64,000 nt of DNA from a candidate division FCPU426 bacterium (GTDB lineage Bacteria; Oederibacteriota; Muellerivitia; Muellerivitales; Muellerivitaceae), in assembly GCA_963796105.1 (NCBI GenBank), contig CAWCKJ010000003.1, positions 160,001 to 224,000 of the forward strand. Reading direction: 5' to 3'. The notes beneath the pieces are model-generated. The model saw nothing but the letters and a program-made list of their open reading frames with translations, ran no database searches and had not been told where the DNA came from. Each line of letters opens with the position of its first letter. Position 1 is the first letter of the stretch. The translations under genes and the position numbers were made by a program. Shown one piece after another: positions 7,812 through 32,846 of the stretch.

Positions 7812-10115
7812 ATGGATCTGCAAGAAATCCTTAATTCCATGGTGAATAAAAAGGCTTCAGACGTCCATTTGAAGGCGGGCGCCCCCCCTCTTTTCCGCAT
7901 TGACGGCGATTTAATCCCCCAAAGTGAAACCATTCTTTCCGCGCAGGAATTGGCGGAAGTCGCGTCTTATTTGATGGATGAGAAGCAGCAAAAACTGTTT
8001 TTCGAGGACCACCACGAGGTCGACCTGGCTTACGCCGTGGAGGGTTTGGCCCGTTTCAGGACGAACGCCATGTGGCAGAGGGGTCTTCCGGAAATCATCA
8101 TGCGGGTTATTCCCCAGATCGTCCCGCGGATTGAGGACATCAACATGCCGACCTCGGTGTTGAAGCAAATCGCCATGGAACCCCGAGGGTTGGTCCTGGT
8201 CACGGGAATAACGGGTTCAGGGAAATCAACCACCCTCGCGGCCCTCATCCACGAGATCAACGTGAACCGCTCCGCCCATATCGTGACCGTTGAAGATCCC
8301 ATCGAGTTTGTCCACCAGGACGCCAAATCCAGCATGACTCAAAGGGAGGTGGGACTAGACACTGAAAACTTTAAAACGGCCTTGAAATTCGTGTTGCGGC
8401 AGGACCCCGATGTCATACTTATCGGGGAAATGCGCGACGTGGAGACGGTCCAGGCCGCCATTACGGCCGCAGAAACCGGCCATTTGGTGTTTTCCACCCT
8501 GCATACTATGGATACCATTCAAACGATAGAGAGAATTTTGGACTTTTTCCCGCCCGATCAGCAAAACCAAATGAGGATCCAGTTATCCAATACCTTGCGA
8601 GCCGTTATCTCTCAACGCTTGGTTTCTAAGGCCGACGGCGCCGGTGTCGTTCCAGCCTGTGAAATCATGGTCGTGACACCCACCATCAAATCCCTTATCG
8701 CCGATGATAAAATCAGCTCGATTCGCGGTTATATCGCGGAGGGTCATAGCCAATATGGAATGCAGACTTTCGACCAATCCTTGATCGAACTGGTTCGAAA
8801 GGGCTTCATTACCCGGGAAAGCGCCATGGAACAGGCCACGTCCCCCAGCGAAATTGATCTTGGGTTGAAGGGGATTTCATCCTCCAAGGCCTCCGCCCAG
8901 TCCTTGATTTCACAAATGGAGACTTCTCAACAAAAAGAGCGGGTTTCCGGCTGGCTAAAGCGGGCGCAGGATCTTTATGAAAGAAGGCGCAATGACGAGG
9001 CAAAAGCGGAGCTAAAACGCATTCTGCAGGAAATGCCGGAACATAAGGAGGCGAACGCGCTGATGGCCCGTTTGCGTGAAATGGAGGACAAAACCGACAA
9101 GAAAAAAGACGCCTCATCCTCGGTTAAAACCGCTCTTCAATTGTACCGGGAAGGCAAGTTCCAGGCCGCTATCCTGGAATTTCAAAAAGCCTTGGAAATA
9201 GACCCGGGAAACAAGCAGGCCGAAGCTTATATCCGCTCCATTCAAACCGAAATGGACAACCGCGTTCGCGCGAGGGAGTTTGTCCAGGCTGGGATGCAGA
9301 AACAACAGCAAAATGACATGGTGTCCGCCCTGAGCCAATTGGAACAAGCGCTCATTTTGGATCCTGATAATGAGCAGGCGCAGGTGCTGCAAAAGGACAT
9401 TAAAAACACTCTTCAAAAGGACCAAGCCAGGGAAAAAGCCAAGGAACAAAACCAAATCGCCATTGATTTATACAAGGCGGGTGATTTACTGGGCGCTCTA
9501 GTCGCATGGAATAAGGCCTATGAGCTGAATTCCGAGCTGGAAGAAGTCTCGCGCTATTTGCAGCAGGGGATCGCCAAACTTCTGTCCTTCGGGGTGGAAG
9601 GGCTTGAGGGAAATCCGGAAACCCAGAACATCCTAGCGCTCTTTGAGCAGGGAGTTCGGAGTTACGTGCGAAGCGATTTCCAGACCGCGATTGAGTTTTT
9701 TAAAAAAGCCCTCGCCAAGGCCGACGGCAACGCCTATTTAAACGCCTACCTGCAAAAGTCCCTGCAGATGGAGGAACAGCAAGTCGAAGAATTGTTCCAT
9801 GAGGGTTTAAAGGCCCAGGAGTCGGGCGACTTGGCCGCGGCGCTAAAAGAGTACAATAAGATCTTGAGGCTCTCGCCGGGGCACCCGGAAACCGTGAAAC
9901 AACTCGGCGTCTTAAAAGCGACGATTCAGCAGAAAACCGAGGCTTTGTACACCGAGGGTAAAGTTTATTTCGACCAGAATGACATGGATAAGGCCGTTCG
10001 TATTTGGGAAAAAATACTTTACCTCGATCCTTCCAATGAACGCGCTAAAAAGAAAATTGAAGAAGCAAAAATCAAAAAAAGCACCTTATCCGGTATCTTT
10101 TCAAAGATAAACTAG
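7812..10115 (+). CDS. pilT: PilT/PilU-family type IV pilus retraction ATPase fused to a ~410-aa TPR region
   Basis: ASDVHL, Walker A GITGSGKST, EDPIE, LRQDPDVILIGEMRD, STLHT, GMQTFDQSL; TPR-like repeats after ~aa 355. Confidence 0.92.
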   Translation: MDLQEILNSMVNKKASDVHLKAGAPPLFRIDGDLIPQSETILSAQELAEVASYLMDEKQQKLFFEDHHEVDLAYAVEGLARFRTNAMWQRGLPEIIMRVIPQIVPRIEDINMPTSVLKQIAMEPRGLVLVTGITGSGKSTTLAALIHEINVNRSAHIVTVEDPIEFVHQDAKSSMTQREVGLDTENFKTALKFVLRQDPDVILIGEMRDVETVQAAITAAETGHLVFSTLHTMDTIQTIERILDFFPPDQQNQMRIQLSNTLRAVISQRLVSKADGAGVVPACEIMVVTPTIKSLIADDKISSIRGYIAEGHSQYGMQTFDQSLIELVRKGFITRESAMEQATSPSEIDLGLKGISSSKASAQSLISQMETSQQKERVSGWLKRAQDLYERRRNDEAKAELKRILQEMPEHKEANALMARLREMEDKTDKKKDASSSVKTALQLYREGKFQAAILEFQKALEIDPGNKQAEAYIRSIQTEMDNRVRAREFVQAGMQKQQQNDMVSALSQLEQALILDPDNEQAQVLQKDIKNTLQKDQAREKAKEQNQIAIDLYKAGDLLGALVAWNKAYELNSELEEVSRYLQQGIAKLLSFGVEGLEGNPETQNILALFEQGVRSYVRSDFQTAIEFFKKALAKADGNAYLNAYLQKSLQMEEQQVEELFHEGLKAQESGDLAAALKEYNKILRLSPGHPETVKQLGVLKATIQQKTEALYTEGKVYFDQNDMDKAVRIWEKILYLDPSNERAKKKIEEAKIKKSTLSGIFSKIN

Positions 10116-10225
10116 ATTCCCTTTTTTGCTTGACGTTTTTGCCACAAACAGTTGTTTTCTTTTCAAGCGTCCATTAAGTTACTGGTGACGCGCAAGCTAC
10201 AAGAGGGGAATTAAAAGGAATTAAA

Positions 10226-10624
10226 ATGAAAAAATTGATCATAGGCATCTTGATATTAATCGGCTTCTTTTTTATGGCCCTTAATACATCCATGCTCGCT
10301 GACCAGGCGTTGAAATGGGTGCAGGAAAATCCCAAGGATCCGCATGCTCCTAAAGTCCTATATGAAGCTGCCCGTTGGTGCGACATCATGGGCGACAATA
10401 AAAAAGCTTTGGAGGTTTATTGGGATCTTTACCAACAATATCCCGGCAGTTCCTCCCTCTGCGCCGCGTCTCTCTATTACAGCGCTCAAATCCAGGTGGA
10501 TACGAGTGTTTCGAAAAAACTCGCGGATCCTTTTTTGAAGATTATATTAGACCAGTATTTTAGCGAGACTGAGTGGGTGGAAAAAGCCAGAAAGTTACAG
10601 GACGAGGTGAATTATGTTCGCTGA
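10226..10624 (+). CDS. Small exported or membrane-anchored TPR-like protein
   Basis: N-terminal hydrophobic segment; helical-repeat pattern (ALEVYWDLYQQYP); 3' end overlaps the next gene. Confidence 0.7.
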   Translation: MKKLIIGILILIGFFFMALNTSMLADQALKWVQENPKDPHAPKVLYEAARWCDIMGDNKKALEVYWDLYQQYPGSSSLCAASLYYSAQIQVDTSVSKKLADPFLKIILDQYFSETEWVEKARKLQDEVNYVR

Positions 10625-11588
10625 AAAGAATAAATATATTGGTTTGGCCGGTTTGGTCTGCCTGATAAGCATGGGTTTGGCTTCATCAGGGATTTGTAAA
10701 ACCACCGAGGGGGAGGATGAAAATGACCACCTATCCCCGCCCCCTACCCCTATATCCGCTGATCGATACCGAAAAATGAATCAGGCGGATCAAGAAAAAT
10801 CCGTTAAAACGCTGAAAACCGCCAAGAAGGAAAAATCGGAAGTTTCATCCGCAACCTCCCCCGCCGCCCAGGTAAGGGCGGGGGATAATATAAGCGTCTA
10901 TTATTTCACGAAAGCTGGTTTTGTAATAACACAGCCATCCCAATTACCTTCATTGGGTAAAGTGGTTGGGGACCTTAGCGAGACGAACGCCTCCGGCCCG
11001 GGCGTTTTAAGTTACAGCCAAGCGAAAAAACCTTATATTGAATATTCCTCCAAGGCTGAGTTAAATATAGACGATTTACTGGTTGTTTATTCGATTTCTC
11101 CGGAAAATATTAATGAACCCGAATCGAATTTTTCCGGTTTTCTGGTTGAAAACAGGGCTATCGTAAAGGTGATTTCTGTCCAAAAGAAGTATTGCCAAGT
11201 GGAGATCGTTAAATCCTTCGTTGCTTTTCACGCGGGAGACCGTGTCCGGCCATACAGCGATGAGCTTCAAAGATGGACAAAGGCTCAAACTAAAAAACCA
11301 CTTCCCTCAAATGAAATCCATTGTTATGTATGCGGTGGAGAGGTTCAAAAAACAGCTTATTCCCAGTCGGATTTCATCATCTTGACCGCCGGCACGAACA
11401 AGGGTGTGGTTGAGGGACAAGTATTTCATCTAAAACAATTAGTTAAGAACGTGGAATTGAGGGAGGATCTTCATGCCTTCCGGGGTTCGGCGCGCGTATT
11501 TTTCGCGGGATCCAATTACTCCATGGCCCAAATTCTTTCCAGCAACGAATCCATCCAAAAAGGGTTTGAGGCGGTTTACAATCCCTGA
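10614..11588 (+). CDS. Exported protein resembling the TsaP/FlgT C-terminal domains (no LysM seen)
   Basis: Signal peptide; GFV...GKVVG...YI and IILTAGTNKGVVEGQVF...AQILSSNESIQKG patterns. Confidence 0.55.
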   Translation: MFAEKNKYIGLAGLVCLISMGLASSGICKTTEGEDENDHLSPPPTPISADRYRKMNQADQEKSVKTLKTAKKEKSEVSSATSPAAQVRAGDNISVYYFTKAGFVITQPSQLPSLGKVVGDLSETNASGPGVLSYSQAKKPYIEYSSKAELNIDDLLVVYSISPENINEPESNFSGFLVENRAIVKVISVQKKYCQVEIVKSFVAFHAGDRVRPYSDELQRWTKAQTKKPLPSNEIHCYVCGGEVQKTAYSQSDFIILTAGTNKGVVEGQVFHLKQLVKNVELREDLHAFRGSARVFFAGSNYSMAQILSSNESIQKGFEAVYNP

Positions 11589-11611
11589 ATCGGAGCCGGA
11601 TTAAGGTTTAA

Positions 11612-12469
11612 ATGGATTCCTTGAAAAACAAAACAGTTGAAGAAGACCCCTTTTTTTTAAAGATTCTTGAACATGTATTGGCCGAAAAAGGATTCGACGG
11701 CACGCATTACAAAATCAATTATATCAAGAGAAGGGTGGCAGTCCGAATGCGGGCATCCGGAACCCGCGATTACTTGGAATATTATCAGGCGTTAAAAAAA
11801 AACCGGGATGAAGTATCACTGCTGTTTGACCGTTTTACCATTCATGTGACGGATTTTTTCAGGGATGCCGAAGTTTACAATTCCATGAAGTTAAAAGTAC
11901 TTCCTGAAATTTTTCGGCAACCGGGATCCAGCCTTAAGATTTGGTGCGCCGGATGCAGCACGGGGCAAGAGCCTTATTCCATCGCCATCACTTTGAGGGA
12001 AAACAGCCCCAAGTACGCGGAGAAGAATATTAAAATCATCGCCACCGATATTGACGATGCCAGCATTCGTTTTGCCGAGCGGGGGACCTATCCCATTGCT
12101 TCACTGAAAAAACTCTCGAGCCAACAAATGAGCAAGTGGTTTTTGAACGAGGGGGAAAAAGCGCGCATATCCCAGGAATTGAGGGACTCGGTAAGGTTCA
12201 AAACGCATGATTTACTTGGACGTTGGGATTCGGATTTTTCGGATTTTAACCTTATATTATGTAGGAATCTCCTTATTTACCTTTCGGCGGTCCGCCAGCA
12301 AAAACTTTATCAAGGGTTTCACAAAGCATTGCGTCCGGATGGGTATTTGATTCTTGGTTTGACGGAAACATTAATGGGCGGGGCTCGTGAATTATTCCGC
12401 TGCGTTGACGTGAAGAACCGAATCTACAAAGTTTGCGGTTCAAAAACGCCTTCTGACAGAGGGGCTTGA
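11612..12469 (+). CDS. cheR: Protein-glutamate O-methyltransferase CheR
   Basis: TDFFRD, IWCAGCSTGQEPYSIA, IIATDID, ILCRNLLIY. Confidence 0.95.
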   Translation: MDSLKNKTVEEDPFFLKILEHVLAEKGFDGTHYKINYIKRRVAVRMRASGTRDYLEYYQALKKNRDEVSLLFDRFTIHVTDFFRDAEVYNSMKLKVLPEIFRQPGSSLKIWCAGCSTGQEPYSIAITLRENSPKYAEKNIKIIATDIDDASIRFAERGTYPIASLKKLSSQQMSKWFLNEGEKARISQELRDSVRFKTHDLLGRWDSDFSDFNLILCRNLLIYLSAVRQQKLYQGFHKALRPDGYLILGLTETLMGGARELFRCVDVKNRIYKVCGSKTPSDRGA

Positions 12470-12475
12470 GGGAAA

Positions 12476-13657
12476 ATGGATAAGGCACAGGATCATATTA
12501 ATCTCGGAACCGCTTTCACTCTTTCTAAACGGTATGACGACGCGATTGTGGAGTTTAAAAAAGCGCTGGTCTTGAGCCCATCGGATGGTGAAATCCTTTT
12601 TCAATTGGGGGGATTATGCACCAATATCGGGAATTACGAGGAAGCTGAGAATTATTACCACGACGCGCTATCCATCAACCCGATGAATTTAAACGCGCAT
12701 TGCAAATTGGGTTTGTTATTGGAAGTCCAGGGCAAGTACCAGGAATCCATACAAGAATTTCAAAAAGCCACTGAATTGAATCCGACTGACGCGGGCCTTT
12801 ACAACAACCTGGGAAATGTCTATTCGAAAATGGGCAGGTATCAGGAAGCCATTGATCAGTTTAAAAAATACACTGGCATCAATCCGAGCAACGCGGAAAT
12901 TTTCTTCAAAATGGGTTTTTCATTTGAACAGTTGGGCAGGCTTGATGAGGCCATCAACTCCTATGAACGAGCTCTAGTCCTAAATCCCCGACACGCGGCT
13001 GTTTACTCCATCCTGGGAAACGCTTACGCGAAAAAAGGGGATTATCAGGAGGCCATATCGCTTTATCAACAGGCCCTTCGATTAAATCCTCAAGAGCCGG
13101 AAGTCCATTTAAAATTGGGGGTGGCCTTCATGTCGCTCGGCCAATACGACAAGGCCTTGTCTGTTTTGGAGGAGGCGCGTCAAAAAAACCCGCAGAATGC
13201 CGAGGTTTATTTGAAGTTTGGGATGATTTACGCGGGCCGCGGCCAGCATGAGGAGGCCATTCAAATGTACCGAAAGGTCATGGAGATTAATCCCCATGAC
13301 GCAAGCGTCCATAATGTCTTGGGTTACATTTATGACCGGCAGGGAGACGCGGAAAAAGCCATGGAGGAATACCGCGCCGCCAAACTCATCAACCCCAATG
13401 ACATATTAATCTTGGATAATCTCGGGAACTTGAATTATAAACAAGGCCATTTTGATGAGGCGGCCCAGGATTTCGAGAGCTTGCTTCAATTGAATCCGCT
13501 GCATAGTGATGCCCACGCGAAGCTGGGAAATGTTTATTTAAAGAAAGGCGAAAAGAACAAGGCCGTCACCCACTGGGAAAAAGCCTTGGAACTTGATCCG
13601 TCCAATGAGATCCTCAAGAACAATTTAAGAATTGTCAAAGGAAGTCCCACGGCATGA
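12476..13657 (+). CDS. TPR repeat protein (about 11 repeats)
   Basis: Consecutive 34-aa units NLG..Y...G.Y.EAI..F.KA..LNP. Confidence 0.92.
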   Translation: MDKAQDHINLGTAFTLSKRYDDAIVEFKKALVLSPSDGEILFQLGGLCTNIGNYEEAENYYHDALSINPMNLNAHCKLGLLLEVQGKYQESIQEFQKATELNPTDAGLYNNLGNVYSKMGRYQEAIDQFKKYTGINPSNAEIFFKMGFSFEQLGRLDEAINSYERALVLNPRHAAVYSILGNAYAKKGDYQEAISLYQQALRLNPQEPEVHLKLGVAFMSLGQYDKALSVLEEARQKNPQNAEVYLKFGMIYAGRGQHEEAIQMYRKVMEINPHDASVHNVLGYIYDRQGDAEKAMEEYRAAKLINPNDILILDNLGNLNYKQGHFDEAAQDFESLLQLNPLHSDAHAKLGNVYLKKGEKNKAVTHWEKALELDPSNEILKNNLRIVKGSPTA

Positions 13658-14292
13658 TGAAGACCCAGGAAAAATCCCTCGGTGAATTATTGCGTCAGGC
13701 TGGGAAAATCACCTCCCGCCAAATTCAAGTGGCGTTATCGGAACAAAAAATAACCCATGAACCCATTGGGAAAATTCTTGTTTCACTTGGTTTTGTGGAG
13801 GAGAGGGATATTTTGCAGGTCATGGAAGGCATGGTGGTATTGACGTTCCGCATGGATAAAGAGCTGTTCGGGGTGGAAACTTTCCGCGCGCGAGAGGTCT
13901 TGAAATACACTGTATTAAAACCATTTGAAAATAAAGTTGGAAATTGGGAAGGGCATCTTGCCCTTCGCGGTGAGGAAATCCCAGTTTTGTCATTCAGGAA
14001 ATTCCTTGAGGTTCCCGCGACGGGTCCCGTGGAACGGAGCTGGTTCATTATCCTTGAGAAAAAGGGGAGGCCTTTCGCCCTTTGGGTGGACGAGGTCAGG
14101 GAAGTAACCCGCTTTAAAATCGATCAAATCGAGCCGGTTCCGCTTTATCTTTTGGGAAAAAAAACAGAATTGTATTATTGTTTAGGTAAAATAAAAGATG
14201 ACCTTTACTCGATCATCAATCCGGATAATTTAGTGGAAGATGTTCCCGAAAAGCCGCCGTTAATTGGAAAAAACCATGCCAGCTCAACCTGA
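13654..14292 (+). CDS. cheW: MshEN-like domain fused to CheW
   Basis: N-terminal SLGELLRQAGKITSRQIQVALSEQ-x5-PIGKILVSLG; CheW fold after aa ~58 (FGVE...REV, LRGEEIPV, LWVDEVREV). Confidence 0.8.
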   Translation: MMKTQEKSLGELLRQAGKITSRQIQVALSEQKITHEPIGKILVSLGFVEERDILQVMEGMVVLTFRMDKELFGVETFRAREVLKYTVLKPFENKVGNWEGHLALRGEEIPVLSFRKFLEVPATGPVERSWFIILEKKGRPFALWVDEVREVTRFKIDQIEPVPLYLLGKKTELYYCLGKIKDDLYSIINPDNLVEDVPEKPPLIGKNHASST

Positions 14293-16486
14293 AACAAAAA
14301 CCATCCGTGAATTAGCCCACGGAAGCGATCAAGGCGACGCGTCCACCCACAATAATTTGGGGGTTTTTTATTATTCCAAGGGCATGTACGCGGAAGCTAT
14401 CAAGGAATTTAAAACTGCGCTTGAGATCGATCCCGAGAACACCCAAGCATTGGAGAATCTGAAGGCCGTCAACCGGCACACGGGCCTTTACGACCGTTCG
14501 ATTGAAGCCTACAAAAAATCGACCCAAATGTTTCCATCGGATTCCGAGGCTAGTTATAACCTCGCCAATTCCTACCGGTATACGGGTCAATATGAAAAAG
14601 CAATCGTTGAATACCAGAAAACCATCGCCTTAAATCCAGAACATCCTTTCGCTAGAAACTACCTTGGTATCACTTACAAGTGCACGGGCCAGTTGGAGGA
14701 GGCCATTAAGGAATTCAAGAAAGCCATCGATGACAACCCCTATTACGCTGATCTTCATAACAATTTAGGCGAGGTTTATTACAAAAAAGCCATGTTGAAT
14801 GAGGCTCTCGTTGAGTTTAAAAAGGCCATTTCTCTTAACCCTGACTATGCCATCGCGCACTACAACTTGAGCTTCGTTTATGGCGATAAGAACATGCTGG
14901 AAGAGGCCGAGAGGGAGTTCAAGAAAGCGGTGGATTTGAACCCTAATTTCGGGCAGGGAGCGCAGGCGCTTTTGTCGATTGAGCGCGCGAAAAGCATGGA
15001 GGAGAAAGTCGCCGAGAAAATCGCTTCCGCCCCCCCCGCTCCCTCCGTGGAAACATACCTTAGTTTAGCGTCCGCTTACAGCGGGAAAGGACTCCTGGAT
15101 GAGGCCATCAGGGAATATAAAAGAGCCATTGAGGCCATGCCGAATGAGGAAAAATCCTACCGGGCTTTGGGTGAAATCTACCTACAGAAGGGCCTGATCG
15201 AGGACGCGTTAATGTCGTTCCAGAAGGCTATCGATATTTCACCCACCGACATCGAGAACTATATACAGCGGGGGATAGCCCTTCGGGAATTGAACCGTTG
15301 CGACGAATCGGTGAGCGAGTTTAAAAAAGCCATAGAATTAACGCAGAATTCCAGCAAGGCTCATTTTGAGATGGGAGTCACCTACTTCAAAATGGGTGAA
15401 ACTGAAAATGCCACGAGGGAAATTAGAAAAGCCCTGGAAATAGACCCTGAGAACGCTGAGGCGCATTATTATCTTGGCGTTTACTATTACAAAGTCAATC
15501 TTTACGACGAGGCCATCCGGGAGATCACCCAGGCCGTGGAGTTGGACGTCTCCATCGCCTCAAGCGCTGAGGCCCTTATTTATTTGGGATTGGCCCTGGC
15601 TGACAAAGGCCGTTTTGAGGAAGCCATCGCAGAGTATAAGAAGGCGATGGAATTGGACCCTAAAAACCCGATTATCCATAATAGTTTGGGAGTGGCCTAT
15701 AAAAACGCCGGAATGATCGATGATGCCATCCAGCATTATCAGAAGGCCATTTCCATCAACCCTCAATACGCCAAGGCCTATAATAATTTGGGAGTTGTTT
15801 ATTTTAAAATGAGCCAATATGAGAAAGCGATCGAAACATTCAAAAAAGCTGTCGAAATAGAGCCGGAATATAAAACGGCTCAAAATAACCTTTCAGTGGC
15901 CATGAAAAAGCGGATCGTTCTTTCCGAGGCATCGGAGGTTTTGATTAAGCAAATTATGGCTGACCCGGAAAATTATGCCTTGCATCAAAACCTCGGCATG
16001 CTTTACAAAAATACGGGGCAACACTCGGAAGCCGTACGCGAGTTCCAGGAAACCATACGCTTGAATCCGAAAAACCGGGAAGCTTTAACCCAACTCGGCG
16101 ACACTCATCTCCTGCTGGGGCATTTGGATGAAGCTGTCAAGGTGCTGGCTAAGGCAATTTCCTGCGACCCTACCCATCCGGACGCGCATATGCAATTGGG
16201 CAAGGTTTATATCCAACGCCAATGGTGGGATGAGGCTTTGGTTGAGTTCAAAAAGAGCCTGGAAGGAAATAAGAATTCCCCGGAGGTATATTATTATCTC
16301 GGCCAAGTCTACCGGTTCAAAGGCTGGTGGGACGACGCCATCCAAAAAATGCAAATGTACCTGGATTCAGCCAATACCGAGGAGGACAAGGTCATACAGG
16401 CCATCGATATCATCCAGCAAATCCAAGTTTGGCGAAAAGAACTCCAAGTTTCCCCGAGCGGGGACAAGGCGAAATATATAAAATAG
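14276..16486 (+). CDS. Large cytoplasmic TPR scaffold (roughly 19-20 repeats)
   Basis: TPR consensus over nearly the whole length; no signal peptide; ATG at 14276 chosen over the upstream TTG. Confidence 0.9.
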   Translation: MPAQPETKTIRELAHGSDQGDASTHNNLGVFYYSKGMYAEAIKEFKTALEIDPENTQALENLKAVNRHTGLYDRSIEAYKKSTQMFPSDSEASYNLANSYRYTGQYEKAIVEYQKTIALNPEHPFARNYLGITYKCTGQLEEAIKEFKKAIDDNPYYADLHNNLGEVYYKKAMLNEALVEFKKAISLNPDYAIAHYNLSFVYGDKNMLEEAEREFKKAVDLNPNFGQGAQALLSIERAKSMEEKVAEKIASAPPAPSVETYLSLASAYSGKGLLDEAIREYKRAIEAMPNEEKSYRALGEIYLQKGLIEDALMSFQKAIDISPTDIENYIQRGIALRELNRCDESVSEFKKAIELTQNSSKAHFEMGVTYFKMGETENATREIRKALEIDPENAEAHYYLGVYYYKVNLYDEAIREITQAVELDVSIASSAEALIYLGLALADKGRFEEAIAEYKKAMELDPKNPIIHNSLGVAYKNAGMIDDAIQHYQKAISINPQYAKAYNNLGVVYFKMSQYEKAIETFKKAVEIEPEYKTAQNNLSVAMKKRIVLSEASEVLIKQIMADPENYALHQNLGMLYKNTGQHSEAVREFQETIRLNPKNREALTQLGDTHLLLGHLDEAVKVLAKAISCDPTHPDAHMQLGKVYIQRQWWDEALVEFKKSLEGNKNSPEVYYYLGQVYRFKGWWDDAIQKMQMYLDSANTEEDKVIQAIDIIQQIQVWRKELQVSPSGDKAKYIK

Positions 16487-16493
16487 GGGCACA

Positions 16494-16832: not shown

Positions 16833-16912
16833 ACCGGGTTGAACCGGCCGGATTCGCGGGCATTTGCCTCAATTGATGATCGAAAATGTGATTTCCTTAA
16901 GAGGAGGATAGA

Positions 16913-17275
16913 GTGGCCCAACGTGTTTTAATCGTGGATGACGCCTCGTTCATGCGGATGATGCTGAAAAATATCTTAGCCGGTGCGGGTTATGAGATAG
17001 CCGGAGAGGCTGAAAACGGCGCGAAAGCGATTGAGCAGTATATGGCCTTGAAGCCGGATTTAATCATCATGGACATCATCATGCCTGAAATGGGGGGCAT
17101 CGACGCGGTCCGGCAAATCATCAAGAACGTACCGAACGCGAAGATCCTTATTTGCAGTTCCATGGGCCAGCAATCCTTAGTGGTTGAGGCCATCCAAGCC
17201 GGGGCAAAAGACTATATTGTGAAACCATTCCAACCCTCTAATGTGCTGGAAGCGGTTAAAAAAGCGTTGGCCTGA
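16913..17275 (+). CDS. cheY: Response regulator CheY
   Basis: IVDDASFMR, MDIIMP, YIVKPF. Confidence 0.95.
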   Translation: MAQRVLIVDDASFMRMMLKNILAGAGYEIAGEAENGAKAIEQYMALKPDLIIMDIIMPEMGGIDAVRQIIKNVPNAKILICSSMGQQSLVVEAIQAGAKDYIVKPFQPSNVLEAVKKALA

Positions 17276-17331
17276 TAAAGGGTTTTTTGATCCAGTCTGA
17301 ATGAAAAACTCCGGAATAAGGGGTAAACCTT

Positions 17332-17967
17332 ATGGGCAAGGAATTCGAGTCGTTCTCGGAACTTCAACTTGACGCTTTGAGGGAAATTGGAAACGTGGGA
17401 GCGGGTAACGCCGCGACGGCCCTTTCGCAAATGGTCGGCCAGCCCATTGAAATGTCTGTGACGAGAGTCAAGGTCCTGCCCACGGAAGAAATAGCGAAAT
17501 TCCTGGGCGGCATGGAAAAAAACGTGGCCGCTGTGTACTTGCCCATATACGGTGATATCTCAGGCGTGGTACTTATCTTTTTTCCCATCGAGATCCTTCC
17601 GGGCCTAGCGGTATTTTTACTTCAAAAAGAAATCACGAGTTCCGATCTTAACGAGTTGGACCGCTCGGCCATCAAGGAATTGGGCAGTATCCTGACGGGC
17701 GCCTATTTGAGCGCCCTGTTCCGTTTTATCCAGGTCCAAATGATCCATGGCGTCCCGACCCTCGTGGTGGATATGGCCCAAGCCATCCTGGACACGGTCT
17801 TGGTGGATCTGGAGCAAAAAGAGGAGATTGCGATAGTGATTGAAACGGAGTTTTTGGAAAAGGAAAGGAAAATAACAGGCAGCTTTTTTCTTTTACCCGA
17901 AACCGGCGCCTTGGAAAGGTTTTTTGCCTCATTTTCCAAATCCTTTGGATCTTCCGGTAATGCATGA
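17332..17967 (+). CDS. cheC: CheY-P phosphatase CheC
   Basis: DALREIGNVGAGNAATALS; second site SAIKELGS. Confidence 0.93.
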   Translation: MGKEFESFSELQLDALREIGNVGAGNAATALSQMVGQPIEMSVTRVKVLPTEEIAKFLGGMEKNVAAVYLPIYGDISGVVLIFFPIEILPGLAVFLLQKEITSSDLNELDRSAIKELGSILTGAYLSALFRFIQVQMIHGVPTLVVDMAQAILDTVLVDLEQKEEIAIVIETEFLEKERKITGSFFLLPETGALERFFASFSKSFGSSGNA

Positions 17968-18445
17968 AACCGATTGGGTTGTAGGAATCGCCGAAATCAG
18001 GACGGCTAAAAGCCCGGACCGGCTTGTGGCCTATGGCTTAGGCTCCTGTGTCGGTATCGCGTTATATGATCCCCTCCTCAAACTGGGAGGTTTGGCGCAC
18101 CCCATGCTGCCCTCGAGCCGGTTTCATCCATTGTCAAAATCCAAGGGAAAATTCGTGGACTCGGCACTTGAGGAGCTTATTCATCAAATGGTGGGGGAGG
18201 GAGGTGAAATAAGCCGATTTCAAGCCAAACTGATCGGTGGCGCGAACATGTTTAACTCTATCATAAAAACACCTCTCACCATTGGTGTCCGCAACGCGAT
18301 GGCGGCCAGGGAGGTACTGGGAAACCGCCAAATATCGATCGTCGGGGAGGAAGTAGGCGGAACCCAAGGCCGGACCGTTTATTTCTCATTGTCTGATGGG
18401 ATGGCGCAAATCCGGAAGTTTAACCAAGAGGATGTGCGTATTTAA
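17960..18445 (+). CDS. cheD: Chemoreceptor glutamine deamidase CheD
   Basis: GLGSCVGIALYD, GGLAHPMLP, AKLIGGANMF, GGTQGRT. Confidence 0.95.
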   Translation: MHETDWVVGIAEIRTAKSPDRLVAYGLGSCVGIALYDPLLKLGGLAHPMLPSSRFHPLSKSKGKFVDSALEELIHQMVGEGGEISRFQAKLIGGANMFNSIIKTPLTIGVRNAMAAREVLGNRQISIVGEEVGGTQGRTVYFSLSDGMAQIRKFNQEDVRI

Positions 18446-18582
18446 TTCAAGCGACTGTTAAGGGAAAACCTTTTTTCGGCTGTAGGGTTTGCGGGGGATC
18501 AAAACCCATTTGAACTTTTGTTGATTTTTCGTTTATTCGAATAAACTTTGCCGCTCAACCAGGATTATTGGGGAAAAATCAA

Positions 18583-19089
18583 ATGACGATGGACAATTCA
18601 AGCGAAACACAAACGTTAGACTTGGCCGCTGGACAAAATCAAGTGATTGTTTTTGAGCTTTCGGGATGTTTGTTCGGATTGGATATCCTGCAGGTTCTTG
18701 AAATTATCCGTTTGGTAGAGATGACATTAGTCCCCAAGACGCCAGCGTTCTTAGAGGGGATCATTCACTTGAGGGGAAAAATCATTCCGGTCATGGATTT
18801 GAAAAAACGCTTTGGTTTGCCGCTTGCTGATTATTGCCAGGAAAGCCGGATTCTTATCGTGCAATGGCAAGATCAAACGATGGGTTTTTTAGTGGACAAG
18901 GTATTGGAGGCAGGCCGTGTTTTTTCGAAGTCGGTCATTCCGGTGAAGGAGCCCATTCTCGACATAAACCCTATTTATCTGGAGGGCCTCATAAGCTGGA
19001 AGGGAAAAACGGTTTTGATGATCAAGCTGGAAAAAGTTTTTTGGGCTGAAAAGTGGAAGGGAAATTCTGAATACGAAATGAATATTTAG
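18583..19089 (+). CDS. cheW: Coupling protein CheW
   Basis: FGLDILQVLEII, LEGIIHLRGKIIPVMDL, GFLVDKV. Confidence 0.93.
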   Translation: MTMDNSSETQTLDLAAGQNQVIVFELSGCLFGLDILQVLEIIRLVEMTLVPKTPAFLEGIIHLRGKIIPVMDLKKRFGLPLADYCQESRILIVQWQDQTMGFLVDKVLEAGRVFSKSVIPVKEPILDINPIYLEGLISWKGKTVLMIKLEKVFWAEKWKGNSEYEMNI

Positions 19090-19102
19090 GAGGAGTGGAC
19101 CT

Positions 19103-19465
19103 TTGACCTACCGCGTCTTATTTGTCGACGATTCGTCTTTCATGCGCACCATATTGAAAGGTATCATCCTGAAGGAACCTTATGTTCTGGCGGGGGAAGC
19201 CTCAAACGGAAAAGAGGCCTTGGAAATTTTTAAGCGTGAGAATCCGGATCTCATCACGATGGATATTGTTATGCCGGAGATGGATGGCATTGAAACCGTG
19301 CGTCAAATACGGGAAATTAAACCTGACGCTAAAATTATTATGGTGAGCGCCATGGGCCAGCAGAGCATGGTCATTGAGGCCATTCAGGCGGGAGCGAGAG
19401 ATTTCATCATCAAGCCCTTCCAGCCGCCGCGCGTCCAAGAAGCCTTGAAAAGAGTCATGGGTTAA
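19103..19465 (+). CDS. cheY: Response regulator CheY (second copy)
   Basis: FVDDSSFMR, MDIVMP, FIIKPF; TTG start with AGGAGGAG RBS. Confidence 0.95.
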   Translation: MTYRVLFVDDSSFMRTILKGIILKEPYVLAGEASNGKEALEIFKRENPDLITMDIVMPEMDGIETVRQIREIKPDAKIIMVSAMGQQSMVIEAIQAGARDFIIKPFQPPRVQEALKRVMG

Positions 19466-19500
19466 GATTCTGGAACACATAATAATTTTAAAGGAATCTC

Positions 19501-20610
19501 ATGCCCAGTGAATTGATTCCGCCGGTACGAGTTCTTGTCGTGGACGACTCGTTTTTTATCAGGAAAATGTTATCTGAAATTCTCGGGGCGGCTGGAAACA
19601 ATATTATAGTGGTGGATACGGCTCAAGATGGGATCGAGGCCATCCATAAACTGAAAACACTCAAACCGGACGTGATTACGCTTGATGTGGAGATGCCCAA
19701 ATTAAACGGCATTGATACGCTGGAACGGATCATGAGTGAGAATCCGACTCCGGTAATTATGCTTTCGAGCCACACCGGAAAAGGAATGGAAATCACGCTT
19801 CGCGCCCTTGAAATCGGGGCGGTCGATTGCGTTTTAAAACCATCGGCAAAGCCGATGGTGGATTTAAGGGGCATCGAGCGTGAATTGATCGAAAAAATAA
19901 GAATGGCCGCCCTTTGCCGTCCCCGCCACGGTTTATTGTCTTTTGGGGGAATAGCGGCCGACGTTTTAAGGCCTGTGCCGGAGAAATCATCGCTCCCCAA
20001 TATGAGTAAAGCCGTTGCCGAGCGGCCCGCGAAGTTTTTAGTCGCCGTCGCCTCGTCGACGGGCGGTCCGAGGGCCTTGAATGAGCTTTTTTCGAAGATC
20101 GAACCGGAGCCCGCCACTTCCTTTCTCATTGTCCAGCATATACCGGTCGGGTTTACAAAGGCTTTGGCGAAAAGGCTTCAGGAAATCAGCGCCATGAAAA
20201 TCACCGAGGCGGCAAACGGTGAGATGATTCTAGCGGGTCACGCATATGTGGCGCCAGCCGGGAATCATTTAACGGTTGAGGGGAACCCCGGCCATTTCAG
20301 GTTTATCTTGAATGATTTACCCCCGCATTTGGGGGTAAAACCTTCCGCGGATATCCTCATGATTTCCGTGGCGCGAGCGTCGGGTAACCAGTGCGCGGGT
20401 GTGGTTTTAACCGGGATGGGCCATGATGGCACCGCGGGATTAAGGGAGATCCGTTCCGCGGGAGGCAAAACTTTCGCCCAGGACGCCGACAGTTGCGTGG
20501 TTTACGGCATGCCGAAATCCGCTTATGAATCGGGGGTCGTGGATCGCCAATTGACTTTGGACCGCATGGCGATAGAGTTGAACGCCTTAGCCGGGGGATT
20601 AAAAGATTGA
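19501..20610 (+). CDS. cheB: Methylesterase response regulator CheB
   Basis: REC domain plus ASSTGGP, VQHIP, LTGMGHDG catalytic motifs. Confidence 0.96.
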   Translation: MPSELIPPVRVLVVDDSFFIRKMLSEILGAAGNNIIVVDTAQDGIEAIHKLKTLKPDVITLDVEMPKLNGIDTLERIMSENPTPVIMLSSHTGKGMEITLRALEIGAVDCVLKPSAKPMVDLRGIERELIEKIRMAALCRPRHGLLSFGGIAADVLRPVPEKSSLPNMSKAVAERPAKFLVAVASSTGGPRALNELFSKIEPEPATSFLIVQHIPVGFTKALAKRLQEISAMKITEAANGEMILAGHAYVAPAGNHLTVEGNPGHFRFILNDLPPHLGVKPSADILMISVARASGNQCAGVVLTGMGHDGTAGLREIRSAGGKTFAQDADSCVVYGMPKSAYESGVVDRQLTLDRMAIELNALAGGLKD

Positions 20611-20717
20611 CACCTTCAATTGACCGGCTGATTTCAGACCCCGGCCAAGCGGCGACCTGAAGGGTCGTCCCGTAACCGGAGGGTTTATTTGTATTTAAGC
20701 TTTTTGGAGGATGGGCC

Positions 20718-22799
20718 GTGAAAGAAATGGAATATAAAGAAATCTTTCTTAATGAGGCGAGGGAATATTTGTCCAATCTCAATAACTCCCTCGTGATTTT
20801 AGAGAAGGATCCGAGCCAACAAGAGGCTATCCGGGAAATATTCCGTGTCGCCCATACCTTGAAAAGCATGTCCGCGACCATGGGCTACGAGCCCATGTCT
20901 AGGCTCACGCACCAAATAGAATCCGTCATGGAACCCATCCGTTCGGGCTTGAAACCCCTTTCCCCCAAATTGGTTGACGCTCTTTTTATCTGTTTGGACC
21001 AACTTGAGGCTTGGGTCAAGGCCCTCGAGACCCAGGATGAGATTATTGAGGAGGGCTTGGAAGAAAAAATCAAAATGCTCGCGGATAACGGCGGGGAAAA
21101 CCCCGTTGACTTTTTCCCGGCAACCGAGGAAACGCGCCCCCTTAAGGAAACTGATCTTTTCAAATTAACAGAGTCCGAGGAGGAAGTTATCTCCCAAGCG
21201 CGGATGAGCGGTTTTTACGTTTACCAGATTAAAATCGAGCTGGACCCGGAATGCGTTTTTAAGGAAGCGAGGGCCTTTCTGGTGCTTCGGAATGTCAATG
21301 AACTCGGCGAAATTGTCAAATCCAGCCCCTCGTCGAAGGACTTGGAAAAAGCCAAATTTGACAGGGAGTTTTATTTGATTGTGGTTTCGGAGAAGACCCA
21401 GGAAATAATGAAAAGCGCGATCATGGGAATTTCTGAAATTCGGCAAGTGTTTGTTGGGGAATACCATCCCGGGTTGAAAACCGAGAGGGGGGATTCGCTT
21501 CACGATGCGGAGTTATCCCGCAAAGATATCAAGCGTGATGACGCCCATTTGCCTGAGGAAAAATCGTTCAATCTTCCCACTGTCAGGGTCCACACGTCAA
21601 AATTGGACAAACTCATGGCTCTCGTCCAGGAACTCATGATCTCGAAAAGCCGTTTTGAGCAAATTATCCATACACGGGATTTGAAAGAACTCAATGACCC
21701 CCTCTCCAGGTTAAGCTTTGTCACCGATGAGCTGCAGGATGAAATCATGAAAGTGAGGCTCATCCCGGTGAAACATATTTTTGAGAGGTTTCCCCGCATG
21801 GTCCGGGACCTGTCGAAAACCCTCGACAAAAAAATAAACCTGGAAATCGAGGGCGCGGAAGTGGAGCTGGACCGCTCCGTCATCGACGAAATCAGCGAAC
21901 CCATCGTTCACTTGCTTCGTAACGCCATCGACCATGGCATCGAGAATTCTGAGGTGCGAATCAAGGAAAGGAAAGAGGCTTTTGGCACTATCCGTCTTCA
22001 AGCCAAGCGGGACCGGTCTTATGTGGTCATTTCCGTGACCGATGATGGAAGAGGGATCGATCCGGAAAAGGTGCGCCTGACCTCTATCGCCAAGGGGCTG
22101 GTCTCGGCGGAAGAGGCCGGCAAAATGACCGACGAGGAGGCCCTGCGGTTGATCTGTCTCCCGGGCTTTTCCACGGTGGAAAATCCCACGGAGATCTCGG
22201 GGCGCGGAGTCGGGGTGGAAGTCGCCAAAACCAGGGTGGAGGCGATGGGAGGGAGTTTCAAGATCATCAGCCGGAAAAACCAGGGAACCACAATGATTCT
22301 CCGCTTCCCGTTGACTTTAGCTATCATCAAGGTCCTATTCGTGAAATGCCTCGAGGAAACATTCGCGATCCCGGTCGCGAGCGTAGTGGAAACGATTGAT
22401 TTGACCCAGGCGGAAATTAAGGTCGTGCAGCAGCAGGAAACATTTGTCCTGAGGGACGAAGTCATCCCTATATACCAGCTTTACGAATTGCTGGATTTGG
22501 ACGGGAAATCCGCCGCCAAAGAGCCGGCTGAATATGAGTCCCTTATAGTCGTGGAGGTGGGAGACTCAAGAATCGGCATTAAGGTTGACCTTGTTTTGGG
22601 CCAGCAAGAAGTTGCTATAAAATCGCTGGATAAGACTTTAAAGGGCATCAGGGGATATTCCGGGGCGACTATTTTAGGGAATGGGAGAATCGCCCTCGTT
22701 TTAGACGTGAACGGGTTAGTGGAAGACCTTAAGGATCGGCGGCTCAGGCTGGAATTCCCATTGCTTAAGAAAGGAGACTCCCATGCTGCCCAATCTTGA
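20718..22799 (+). CDS. cheA: Histidine kinase CheA
   Basis: HPt FRVAHTLKSMS, P2 domain, HLLRNAIDHG, DDGRG, GRGVG, C-terminal CheW domain. Confidence 0.97.
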   Translation: MKEMEYKEIFLNEAREYLSNLNNSLVILEKDPSQQEAIREIFRVAHTLKSMSATMGYEPMSRLTHQIESVMEPIRSGLKPLSPKLVDALFICLDQLEAWVKALETQDEIIEEGLEEKIKMLADNGGENPVDFFPATEETRPLKETDLFKLTESEEEVISQARMSGFYVYQIKIELDPECVFKEARAFLVLRNVNELGEIVKSSPSSKDLEKAKFDREFYLIVVSEKTQEIMKSAIMGISEIRQVFVGEYHPGLKTERGDSLHDAELSRKDIKRDDAHLPEEKSFNLPTVRVHTSKLDKLMALVQELMISKSRFEQIIHTRDLKELNDPLSRLSFVTDELQDEIMKVRLIPVKHIFERFPRMVRDLSKTLDKKINLEIEGAEVELDRSVIDEISEPIVHLLRNAIDHGIENSEVRIKERKEAFGTIRLQAKRDRSYVVISVTDDGRGIDPEKVRLTSIAKGLVSAEEAGKMTDEEALRLICLPGFSTVENPTEISGRGVGVEVAKTRVEAMGGSFKIISRKNQGTTMILRFPLTLAIIKVLFVKCLEETFAIPVASVVETIDLTQAEIKVVQQQETFVLRDEVIPIYQLYELLDLDGKSAAKEPAEYESLIVVEVGDSRIGIKVDLVLGQQEVAIKSLDKTLKGIRGYSGATILGNGRIALVLDVNGLVEDLKDRRLRLEFPLLKKGDSHAAQS

Positions 22800-23397
22800 T
22801 GACTTGACTTTGGCCCAGCTGGACGCGTTGAAGGAAGTCGGCAATATAGGCGCGGGCCATGGAGCGACAGCCCTATCCCAGCTCCTGCGTAAAAAAATAT
22901 TGATTACGGTCCCCAAGGCGAATGTCCTGCCGATCGAGGATGTGCCGAAATTAATGGGGGATCCCAATACCCTGGTGGCCGGCTTGATCTTGAATATTCT
23001 CGGCGACGCGACCGGTAAGATCATTCTTTTGTTCCCCCGGGACTCGGCCCTGCATTTGGCGGATTTGCTGTTAAAACAGGAAATCGGGACAAGCATGATC
23101 CTGACCGAAATGGGGCACTCCGCCATCAAGGAGGCCGGGAATATCCTTACGGGGGCTTACTTAAGCGCGTTAAACGAGTTTTTGGGAATGCTCTTGTTGA
23201 TTTCCGTTCCCACCCTGGTGTTTGACATGGCTGGGGCTCTTTTGAGAACCATCACCCAGGGGATGGAAGATGTCACGAAAGTCATTTGCATAGAAACCCA
23301 ATTTATTGACGCGAACGAGGTGGTGGCGGGATATTTTATTTTGGCCCCGGACGCGACATCCTTGAGGGCCATATTCCAGGCCATAAAGCTGAAATAA
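22783..23397 (+). CDS. cheC: CheC phosphatase (second copy)
   Basis: DALKEVGNIGAG and SAIKEAGNIL. Confidence 0.93.
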   Translation: MLPNLDDLTLAQLDALKEVGNIGAGHGATALSQLLRKKILITVPKANVLPIEDVPKLMGDPNTLVAGLILNILGDATGKIILLFPRDSALHLADLLLKQEIGTSMILTEMGHSAIKEAGNILTGAYLSALNEFLGMLLLISVPTLVFDMAGALLRTITQGMEDVTKVICIETQFIDANEVVAGYFILAPDATSLRAIFQAIKLK

Positions 23398-23623
23398 ACT
23401 TTTTTCACGGTATTCCTAAAAATTTATTCTTAGACTGATGGAAATAAAGGGTTTATGAATGTTTTATATATTCAATCATCTTGAGCCATTTCAATTTCAC
23501 GCTTTTTAAATTAAACTCAAATTCAATAAACGAAAACACGATTCACCGGTAATTCATTGTTATGATTTTAAAAATATTTCGCGCGCGATCAAGCATTCAG
23601 GATCAATAAACCAGAAGGCATTC

Positions 23624-24706
23624 ATGATCTCCAACCAAATCATAGCGGCAAAAATCCAAATGTCCTTGAATCAATCAAAGTTGAATAGGACCCATTTAGT
23701 ATCCTGCTGCAGGGAAATTCTTGATAATTTCAAGTTCGACAGTGTTTTTCTTTGCCACTCCCCTTCGCCTGAGGCCGAATTGAAAAAAATCGCTTTTGAG
23801 GGCAAGGAAGAGATCATGGACGCCTGTATTTACCGCCTGGGAGTGGAAGAAAGGCTGGCCTTGACGAGGCTTTCGTATAAGACCTACACGGATATTACCG
23901 GAAAGCCCCTGTTCAATAAATCGGGGTCATTGAGGATTCAAAAACCCAACAGCGGGATTTACTTGGTCCATTTTCAGCCCAATAAGGATTTTTTAATATT
24001 CGGCTGCGCTCACCAGGAGCCGAGGACTTATGACTCATCCATCCTGAACGACTTGATCAGCGTTTGGAACTCGACAAAAGAAGGTTTGTGCGACGCGGCG
24101 CGGAAGGTACAAGGCTTGCCGGCGGACAATATAAAAAACTCGAGTCCGAATCCCCCGGCCCAAACTACGCAGACGAATTTGGATTTGAAATTGCCTGCTC
24201 CGCCATCAAGCCCCTTGAAAAACAAGCACCGTAAACCAGCGCTTCTGGTGGATGAGGTCACTAAACTGTTCAACAAGGATTATTTTGAGGATTGCCTGGC
24301 CATCGAGGTGGAAAGGGCGAAAAGGTACTCCAGGAATCTCAGCCTTTTGTTTTTAAGCGTGACGCCTTTGAGTCAAACGGCCCAAAACGAGAATGAAATA
24401 GCCCTTCAAATTTCGGAGATCCTTTCCCTGAGCCTGCGCCGGGTGGACGTGATTTGCAGGCTGGAAAAAAACAAATACGCCTTGATATTGCCTGATACCT
24501 CCACCAGTACCTATGGGACCATCGCGAAGCGTATTTTCAAGCATTTCAAGGAGGTGATGGGGGCAACCCCTCCCGTGTTCATCAACGTCAGCGCGTCGTC
24601 CTACCCGAAACACGCCGATAATCACCTCTCCTTGCTGCAAAATACCGAAAAACTTTTAACTCAGGCTAGAACCGCGGGCCCGAATAAGGCGGTCCTGCCG
24701 GAATAA
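23624..24706 (+). CDS. Degenerate GGDEF-domain protein with N-terminal GAF-like region
   Basis: DEVTKLFNKDYF..EVERAKRY; LRRVDVICRLEKNKY has the RxxD I-site but EKNKY in place of GGDEF. Confidence 0.8.
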   Translation: MISNQIIAAKIQMSLNQSKLNRTHLVSCCREILDNFKFDSVFLCHSPSPEAELKKIAFEGKEEIMDACIYRLGVEERLALTRLSYKTYTDITGKPLFNKSGSLRIQKPNSGIYLVHFQPNKDFLIFGCAHQEPRTYDSSILNDLISVWNSTKEGLCDAARKVQGLPADNIKNSSPNPPAQTTQTNLDLKLPAPPSSPLKNKHRKPALLVDEVTKLFNKDYFEDCLAIEVERAKRYSRNLSLLFLSVTPLSQTAQNENEIALQISEILSLSLRRVDVICRLEKNKYALILPDTSTSTYGTIAKRIFKHFKEVMGATPPVFINVSASSYPKHADNHLSLLQNTEKLLTQARTAGPNKAVLPE

Positions 24707-32820: not shown

Positions 32821-32846
32821 CTCAGGAACTCTGGAATCAGGGGCAT

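Follow-up and report, generated by a model that had tools for sequence, protein, structure and literature searches.

An F1-like chemosensory cluster with MshEN-CheW, P-II and TPR genes beside type IV pilus genes in an uncultured candidate phylum

What does a chemosensory pathway sense, and which machine does it drive, when its gene cluster contains neither a receptor nor a flagellar gene and starts with a pilus-type ATPase? This question is raised by a run of 17 genes at positions 7812-24706 of the 64,000-nucleotide (nt) stretch analysed here (hereafter the window; contig CAWCKJ010000003.1, positions 160,001 to 224,000, of assembly GCA_963796105.1), which comes from an uncultured soil bacterium of a candidate phylum (candidate division FCPU426). 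The genome assembly (4.98 Mb, 16 contigs) is 96.8% complete. A first-pass annotation, made from the window alone, had read the run as a receptor-less chemosensory system, in which an F1-like core was repurposed for pilus control and received P-II and cyclic diguanylate (c-di-GMP) signals through tetratricopeptide repeat (TPR) scaffolds. On the evidence given below we lean, if only slightly, towards a somewhat different answer: a complete F1-type pathway whose methyl-accepting chemotaxis proteins (MCPs) are dispersed, which carries a phylum-specific insert, and whose output is not tied to flagella, the type IV pilus being its likeliest target.

Gene content and conservation of the cluster

Domain assignments throughout the gene run were obtained from Pfam and NCBIfam scans of the window's open reading frames (ORFs). 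As had been claimed, all 17 genes, from that of a PilT-TPR protein to that of a degenerate GGDEF protein, point in one direction (plus strand), and the ORF listing gives intergenic distances of -44 to 227 nt with four overlaps. None of the 52 window ORFs scanned (20 + 32) matched an MCP or flagellar family, and all genome-wide matches to MCPsignal, FHIPEP and FliM fall outside the window, which agrees with the reported absence of such genes from the 64 kb. A promoter and terminator scan of positions 5000-24999 returned 20 and 27 sites where 21 and 32 were expected, and did not inform the operon structure.

The kinase CheA (20718-22799) shows the architecture P1-P2-P3-P4-P5, with Hpt, P2 (PF07194, 3e-24), H-kinase_dim, HATPase_c and CheW domains; Pfam gave a single Hpt domain together with P2, and no receiver domain. 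It scored 503 bits against the NCBIfam model CheA_Halo versus 329 bits against the E. coli type. The best NCBIfam models of CheA and of both single-domain regulators, CheY1 (16913-17275) and CheY2 (19103-19465; both PF00072), were haloarchaeal, with scores below the cut-offs of those models. The best solved relatives of CheA are the CheA chains 3ja6_C and 1b3q_A (348 bits), and 6s1k_A gave 292 bits. Besides CheB and CheR the cluster encodes both CheC and CheD, as is typical of the F1 class: CheR at 11612-12469 (PF01739, 1.5e-52; PF03705), CheC1 at 17332-17967 and CheC2 at 22783-23397 (PF04509, two stretches each), CheD at 17924-18445 (PF03975) and CheB, a receiver plus methylesterase, at 19501-20610 (PF00072, PF01339). 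A plain CheW, CheW2, is encoded at 18568-19089 (PF01584, 3e-29). The strings ASSTGG, QHIP and GHDG, resembling a catalytic triad, were found in CheB, Cys42 and HPMLP (with His59) in CheD, and the corresponding motif also in CheR. We take these strings to be catalytic from general patterns rather than a curated model, and judged in this way the three enzymes do keep the intact motifs ascribed to them. The features of the Tfp class (Pil-Chp-like), namely a CheA with several Hpt domains and a C-terminal receiver, and a PilJ-type MCP in the cluster, are absent. Hence the proposal of an F1-like core, with a P2-bearing CheA, two CheC, CheD, CheR and CheB, is supported by the domain content.

In the scheme of Wuichet and Zhulin, the F1 class includes the chemotaxis systems of Thermotoga maritima and Bacillus subtilis, and CheC and CheD in combination with a P2-bearing CheA are motility-type features. 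The present set resembles these two systems in its five-domain CheA with P2, in CheW, CheY, CheB, CheR, CheC and CheD, and in its dispersed MCPs; it differs from them by an extra insert between cheR and cheY, a second CheY and a second CheC, and by being kept in genomes without flagella and beside pilus genes. The Pil-Chp system of Pseudomonas aeruginosa and the Frz and Dif systems of Myxococcus xanthus are also chemosensory pathways beside pilus genes. Unlike them, the pathway described here has a CheA with a single Hpt domain plus P2 and no receiver, includes CheC and CheD, has no in-cluster MCP in its family, and encodes the TPR protein that neighbours CheR as a separate gene. The CheR-TPR fusion FrzF, as described in the available part of PMC3447774, is alike in that a TPR is associated with CheR.

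The insert is the new part of the cluster. It comprises four genes: TPR393, a cytoplasmic TPR protein of 393 residues (12476-13657); MshEN-CheW (13654-14292); TPR740, a large TPR protein of 740 residues (14264-16486, assigned with Pfam); and a che-linked P-II paralogue (16494-16832). Profile searches of 99 genomes of the phylum, which as relatives are non-independent samples and to that extent weaken the case made here, found MshEN-CheW at full length in 64 genomes, and in one more as a copy truncated where a contig ends. All genes were in order in 6 of 6 close loci, and seven genomes of other families keep the order CheR, TPR393, MshEN-CheW, (TPR740), P-II, CheY, CheC, CheD, ..., CheB; the CheR-to-CheB order was also found in genomes G094, G066 and G001. 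The full order in the close loci together with the CheR-to-CheB order in seven more distant genomes excludes a chance arrangement. Synteny conserved across over 20 genomes likewise led us to reject an assembly artefact or chance clustering. A recently imported island was rejected as well, since panK, dprA and topA flank the block in relatives too.

Outside the phylum the arrangement was not encountered. A TPR393 profile run over 185,579 species genomes detected 80 loci, 79 of which were compared. About 27 of them had CheR, TPR393 and MshEN-CheW together, and these belong to metagenome-assembled genome records that are unclassified or labelled Goldiibacteriota/Goldbacteria, with some Spirochaetia and one Methylomirabilis label; the latter two kinds of label are probably mistaken. 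Among atlas clusters, the nearest carry the labels Ca. Goldiibacteriota and candidate division FCPU426. No che neighbours were found beside the remaining ~50 loci, other phyla included. Thus the linkage of P-II, TPR and che genes is conserved in the phylum, the insert beside che genes was not seen elsewhere, and the insert is phylum-specific. A unit of the small TPR-like gene, the TsaP-like gene (both described below), CheR, TPR393 and MshEN-CheW stands alone at L096:7596-11792 and also at loci L094 and L098, with no P-II or CheY gene within 10 kb.

Conservation is uneven along the cluster. In the close loci, TPR393, TPR740, PilT-TPR, P-II, CheY1 and CheC2 are 71-88% identical, versus 38-62% for CheR, CheD, CheW2, CheA and CheB. 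CheY1 (81-88%) is among the best conserved proteins of the cluster, and CheC2 reaches 79-85%. The same contrast was observed with the sister species, in which the TPR, P-II, CheY1 and CheC2 side is again better conserved than the enzymes.

Components of the insert and their possible ligands

Residues 9-58 of MshEN-CheW match the NCBIfam model NF053729 ('c-di-GMP_motif, MshE-related') with 57.7 bits, above the cut-off of 38, so that the protein consists of a 53-residue four-helix module resembling the c-di-GMP receptor of MshE, carried on an N-terminal extension of ~60 residues, and a CheW domain. An AlphaFold2 model (predicted local distance difference test score 81) places four helices before a CheW fold. 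In this model the CheW part superposes on 2qdl, a Thermoanaerobacter CheW, with a root-mean-square deviation (rmsd) of 1.9 Å over 137 columns, and the MshEN helices superpose on the c-di-GMP-bound GSPII-B domain of PilF (8pdk_A) with an rmsd of 1.0 Å over 52 columns at 36% identity; they also match MshE (5htl_B). Model score and predicted fold therefore both bear out the MshEN-CheW fusion noticed at first pass.

According to the available text of PMC5013675, MshEN consists of two 24-residue motifs separated by a 5-residue spacer, and the first residue is Arg, relaxed to [RKPN]. The alignment of MshEN-CheW keeps this 24+5+24 spacing, and the module thus resembles the MshEN/GSPII-B domains of MshE and PilF (5htl, 8pdk) in its 53-residue two-motif build, its 5-residue spacer and its four-helix fold; it differs in being fused to CheW and in a motif 1 that starts with Ser. 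Motif 2 opens with Pro or Lys, and its last residue is Met. Several details speak against c-di-GMP binding as we propose it. All 13 orthologues compared have Ser or Thr at the start of motif 1, directly preceded by Lys or Arg; the window's protein has Ser there, and Arg and Lys occupy two hydrophobic positions of its motif. At loci L084 and L085 the MshEN part is lost altogether, and the protein begins at residue 45.

The best 150 matches of the MshEN-CheW profile among protein representatives were mostly multi-CheW proteins, with four full-length and one partial two-domain forms, and a search with a single distant orthologue returned only its own record and one chance match. In the available text of PMC5013675, MshEN fusions to CheA, CheX and REC are named, and CheW is absent from the main text. 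T2SSE, MshE, c-di-GMP and TPR go unmentioned in the available part of a survey of CheW domains (bioRxiv 10.1101/2022.05.07.491037). The literature searched gave no description of MshEN-CheW or of a P-II gene in a che operon.

The che-linked P-II (PF00543 at 2e-26, 92.7 bits versus a cut-off of 25) is one of seven P-II genes in the genome. It forms an orthologue group of its own: orthologues are 67-90% identical within the order and 45-52% in other families, where they still lie within the che cluster, versus 35-43% identity to its paralogues in the same genome and up to 46% to the second-best copies of relatives. It is not an equivalog of GlnB or GlnK, as it reaches 97 and 95 bits with the corresponding NCBIfam models, whose cut-offs are 181 and 202. 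T83, G84, G87, D88, G89, K90, R101 and R103, which cover the nucleotide-binding B-loop and the C-terminal Arg residues, do not vary among the 14 orthologues compared; the T-loop differs between families. Position 58 is Arg instead of Lys in most orthologues and Gln39 is replaced by His or Arg in some families, and since we take Gln39 and Lys58 to be 2-oxoglutarate-binding residues, these exchanges count against a 2-oxoglutarate signal.

Among the TPR proteins, TPR393 was present in every cluster-bearing locus examined, and in the six close loci its identity (71-78%) exceeds that of CheR (49-57%). TPR740 is 74-77% identical in close loci and 40-58% in other families. It is missing from the three loci of family f3 that were examined, and P-II there directly follows MshEN-CheW. 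The cheR and TPR393 genes are separate ORFs in all loci examined; in the window they lie 7 nt apart, and the TPR393 stop codon overlaps the start of MshEN-CheW. P-II, the TPR proteins and MshEN-CheW were thus found to be wired into the cluster, as had been claimed, and to be conserved across families of the phylum.

The last gene of the run (23624-24706; PF00990, 2e-13) encodes the degenerate GGDEF protein. The active-site motif GG[DE]EF has no match in this protein: EKNKY stands at the motif position, and an RxxD motif (RRVD) is kept five residues upstream, which agrees with the call of a dead GGDEF domain. The gene is kept at the end of the cluster within the family and the order. Its RxxD, together with the HD_5 genes that relatives carry (see below), would add to the c-di-GMP theme of the locus.

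c-di-GMP is known to reach chemotaxis via PilZ proteins, CheY-like proteins and receptor tails, and we know of no P-II protein that is part of a chemosensory array. The nearest parallel is Azospirillum brasilense, where, according to the available part of PMC7646526, the general P-II protein GlnZ binds a cyclase and a phosphodiesterase and aerotaxis is affected; P-II, c-di-GMP and taxis are linked in both cases, and here the P-II is a dedicated paralogue inside the che operon. We infer from sequence every binding step of the scheme that follows, as well as the pathway output. The CheA pathway would take its input from ordinary transmembrane MCPs whose genes lie outside the cluster. MshEN-CheW would occupy a CheW position in the receptor-kinase array and could thereby make the coupling sensitive to c-di-GMP. 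The P-II trimer might report ATP/ADP, and perhaps 2-oxoglutarate. The TPR proteins may hold MshEN-CheW and P-II at the array or at CheR, and the degenerate GGDEF protein might be a further c-di-GMP-binding part. A conserved F1-core operon with MshEN-CheW and P-II across an uncultured phylum offers a protein set for studying metabolic gating of taxis in vitro.

Receptors, flagella and type IV pili

On the input side, a genome-wide search went against the first-pass annotation on two counts, as four MCPsignal genes, none of them in the window, and a complete flagellar locus were found. One MCP, of 535 residues, belongs to a second cluster on contig C2 (L010, G000:C2:255000-274999, ~9251-15252) together with CheX, CheA, CheW and two response regulators; P2 was not matched in the CheA of that cluster, its Hpt domain lies at residues 148-233, and the cluster has neither CheR nor CheB. 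In distant relatives, an MCP of ~425 residues lies between cheD and cheW in 3 of 3 ORFs scanned with Pfam, and a fourth, unscanned ORF has the same size and place. These in-cluster MCPs align over nearly their full length, with 38-39% identity, with a 422-residue MCP of the window's genome (C3:272353-273621), located ~88 kb downstream of the cluster; one of the three scores only narrowly better against it than against the next genome MCP (222 versus 218 bits). Two of the genome's MCPs align with the relatives' in-cluster MCPs free of gaps, and in the MCP of the second cluster the aligned stretch is shorter by 28 residues.

Since the genome encodes MCPs and related clusters carry one, ordinary substrates exist for CheR, CheB and CheD. 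We judge it very improbable indeed that the system truly lacks receptors, with cytoplasmic signals taking the place of MCP input and the TPR proteins themselves serving as substrates of the three enzymes. Such a system would account for the lack of an MCP in the cluster and in the window, and for TPR proteins that are better conserved than the enzymes; the four MCPs of the genome, the MCP of the same architecture as the C3 one in the homologous clusters of three relatives, and the 1-7 MCPs in each of five checked relatives without flagella contradict it. An ad hoc methylation-site pattern, which is weak evidence, matched three sites in one MCP, one site in a second and no site in any of the four TPR proteins, in MshEN-CheW or in P-II, and so lends the TPR-substrate idea no support. 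As a matter of general knowledge, moreover, two CheW domains and a P5 domain are sensible only with receptors.

On the output side, FlhA and FliM are both missing from 12 of the 65 MshEN-CheW-bearing genomes, so the co-occurrence of the F1 class with flagella is broken. A completeness of at least 90% is reached by seven of these (G001, G030, G060, G062, G064, G065 and G066). G001 belongs to the window's own genus, and G066, which is 100% complete in 8 contigs, has a flagellated sister, G036. The orthologous CheA is the sole CheA in six of these seven (G060 has one more), and the cluster genes are intact in the three that were examined, G001 (57-93% identity), G030 and G066. There are also 12 flagellated genomes without any detectable CheA, including G013 (99% complete) and G029 (a single contig); hence flagella in this phylum need no Che pathway. 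In those CheA-less genomes examined, FliM still has the canonical N-terminal CheY-binding-type peptide. As the peptide was found in 9 of 9 type-1 FliM proteins from cluster-bearing genomes and in 11 of 11 examined from cluster-less ones, nine of which are without CheA, it is present with or without the cluster and was rejected as an output discriminator. A divergent second flagellar type also exists in the phylum (FliM 33-72 bits, FlhA ~810-830 bits). The divergent FliM of G036 (L073, G036:C2:964848-966205), a genome of family f10 and the only one read, lacks the peptide, and f10 keeps the module.

Type IV pilus genes recur beside the pathway. The first gene of the run (7812-10115) encodes a hexameric ATPase of the PilT/PilU family (residues 1 to ~350; TIGR01420 at 457.8 bits versus a cut-off of 319.1, full coverage) with a C-terminal TPR tail of ~400 residues. 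Walker A, EDPIE and HLVFSTLH are present in it, and TIKSLIAD stands in the position of AIRNLIRE, which we take to be the motif of canonical PilT; within the family, relatives are 76-92% identical. Other PilT-like genes of the genome lie on contigs C10 and C4, the former with a PilT and PilQ cluster. Next to the ATPase gene, a small predicted-exported TPR-like protein of 132 residues (10226-10624), with weak TPR_14 and YbgF matches and an N-terminal hydrophobic leader, is conserved beside a TsaP-like gene (10614-11588; 324 residues, predicted exported). A profile of the TsaP-like protein with nine orthologues matched residues 139-345 of M. xanthus TsaP (3jc8_Ta, E 6e-18) and 6ve2_O (1.2e-6). 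A LysM domain was not detected, as no Pfam family matched at E up to 0.01; the TsaP-like label, as originally given, therefore holds for the non-LysM part of TsaP. Distant families have a TsaP-like homologue directly upstream of cheR, or upstream of an HD-type gene followed by cheR (hhalign probabilities 98.5% and 98.3%), and one such homologue, used singly as query, matches TsaP (E 3e-7). The HD_5/HD (HD-GYP-like) protein between the TsaP-like gene and cheR occurs in families f8 and f23 (L031:3825-5204, L051:4707-6116) and is absent from the window.

A different arrangement was observed in other relatives. In G066, which is without flagella, PilT, an AMIN-type secretin, aroC, two genes, CheA, CheC and a 713-residue PilM-like protein lie in one stretch of ~15 kb, and in G030 a PilT gene is ~10 kb from CheA. 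An actin-fold (PilM/FtsA-like) protein of 704-726 residues follows cheC in five loci of families f2, f3, f8 and f10 (L033:1643-3769, L031:17754-19868, L032:17773-19950, L034:330-2510 and L053:11697-13838). One copy has weak ThiS and ubiquitin-like matches in its C-terminal half. The window's genome has no orthologue, its sole match being 23-26% identical and located on contig C12. Type IV pilus genes thus flank the pathway in two different arrangements. Together with retention of the pathway in relatives that have neither FlhA nor FliM, this makes a non-flagellar output credible. In those relatives the type IV pilus machinery would be the likeliest target; in the window's bacterium it might be controlled besides the flagellar switch, and a dual role in this flagellated genome, or an alternative cellular function, is possible.

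Upstream of the PilT-TPR gene the window encodes a 786-residue protein, TPR786 (5255-7615), with TPR repeats in its last 200 residues only, which is probably unrelated to the che system. In relatives (L015:2284-4053) an extra gene of the TMEM260-like O-mannosyltransferase type lies between TPR786 and PilT-TPR.

The pilus assignment has considerable evidence to contend with, much of which would suit a plain flagellar F1 chemotaxis operon. In such an operon the TPR proteins, MshEN-CheW and P-II would tune swimming, the pilus neighbours would be uncoupled from the pathway, and its retention in genomes without flagella would be residual or unrelated. F1 systems are, as established, flagellar or archaellar. 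The core here is F1-like, and the genome has a 35-kb flagellar locus (flgBCFGHI, fliEFGHIJLMNOPQR, flhABF, motAB, fliA, flgMN, fapA), whose FliM retains the N-terminal CheY-binding-type peptide; Flagellin_N (PF00669) was not found genome-wide despite complete basal body, export, motor and regulatory genes, and the flagellin may be divergent or unassembled. A flagellar marker is present in 53 of the 65 module-bearing genomes, and in flagellated G010 and G025 the cluster's CheA is the sole CheA. The fused PilT-TPR occurs in none of 11 genomes of family f10, ten of which have full-length MshEN-CheW, and in several other families it is encoded on other contigs or at a distance of 580 kb. In G013 the order is panK, TPR786, one gene, PilT-TPR, small TPR, TsaP-like, dprA and topA, and the che block is gone. 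As each persists without the other, neither the PilT-TPR unit nor the che block needs the other. Of the linkage first proposed between P-II, TPR, che and pilT genes, the P-II/TPR/che part has therefore proved conserved, and the pilT part is subject to independent loss. The MCP may have moved either out of the cluster or into it, which also weighs on this side. A flagellar operon is nevertheless hard to reconcile with the seven near-complete genomes that keep the pathway without FlhA and FliM (with gene order checked in three and MCPs in five), with flagellated genomes that do without CheA, with a G036 FliM that has no CheY-binding peptide while f10 keeps the module, and with pilus genes in two arrangements. 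We therefore regard it as unlikely, though well worth keeping in sight.

Quite unlikely in our view, and less so only than the receptor-less system, is an alternative cellular function (ACF) in which the CheYs, the dead GGDEF protein, the PilM-like ATPase and P-II would set c-di-GMP-dependent adhesion, biofilm formation or polarity without any motility organelle. The pathway is kept without flagella, and the potential c-di-GMP parts, namely MshEN-CheW, the RxxD-bearing GGDEF protein and the HD_5 genes of relatives, would fit this idea, as would the binding of A. brasilense P-II to c-di-GMP enzymes with effects on aerotaxis and flocculation (available part of PMC7646526). A TPR protein beside CheR recalls the CheR-TPR fusions of ACF pathways, which the available part of PMC3447774 ties to non-flagellar pathways; those fusions have ~2 repeats, whereas TPR393 has 11 TPR_1/TPR_2 stretches and is encoded separately from CheR. 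Both response regulators here are single-domain CheYs, and ACF clusters, according to the same source, typically have multidomain ones. CheC, CheD and the P2-bearing CheA are, as said, of the motility type.

We thus return to a complete F1-type pathway with dispersed MCPs and with type IV pili as the likeliest target. Of the repurposing for pilus control that was first suggested, a non-flagellar output is credible, and control of the pilus is plausible and unproven. In archaea, an F1-derived Che system acts on the archaellum, a type-IV-pilus-like motor, via the adaptor CheF. The likeness lies in an F1 core with CheC and CheD controlling a machine with a PilB/PilT-superfamily ATPase, which for the pilus here is a proposal; the host here is a bacterium. 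A bolder version, which we hold to be rather doubtful, is that the F1 pathway of this phylum has exchanged flagellar for type IV pilus control, much as the archaeal one came to act on the archaellum, and that its array includes a c-di-GMP-binding CheW and a dedicated P-II trimer on TPR scaffolds; second-messenger level and energy or carbon status would in that case gate taxis at the array and not at the motor. An F1 pathway kept in piliated bacteria without flagella would in any case bear on how chemosensory classes change their output.

Flanks and other features of the window

The gene run is flanked by housekeeping genes, with valS, nadC, birA and panK upstream and dprA and topA downstream. 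Further along, the region 31835-39875 is lower in GC (0.39 at 34001-36000) and contains a transposase gene of the IS200-like type together with some ten ORFs that Pfam did not match. A stand-alone PilZ protein is encoded at 44596-45036. Two giant ORFs of 2017 and 1618 residues, for which Pfam gave no family at E up to 1e-5, lie adjacent to each other at 52289-58342 and 58356-63212. At 46610-48028, a fused LpxC-FabZ gene is located within a lipid A cluster.

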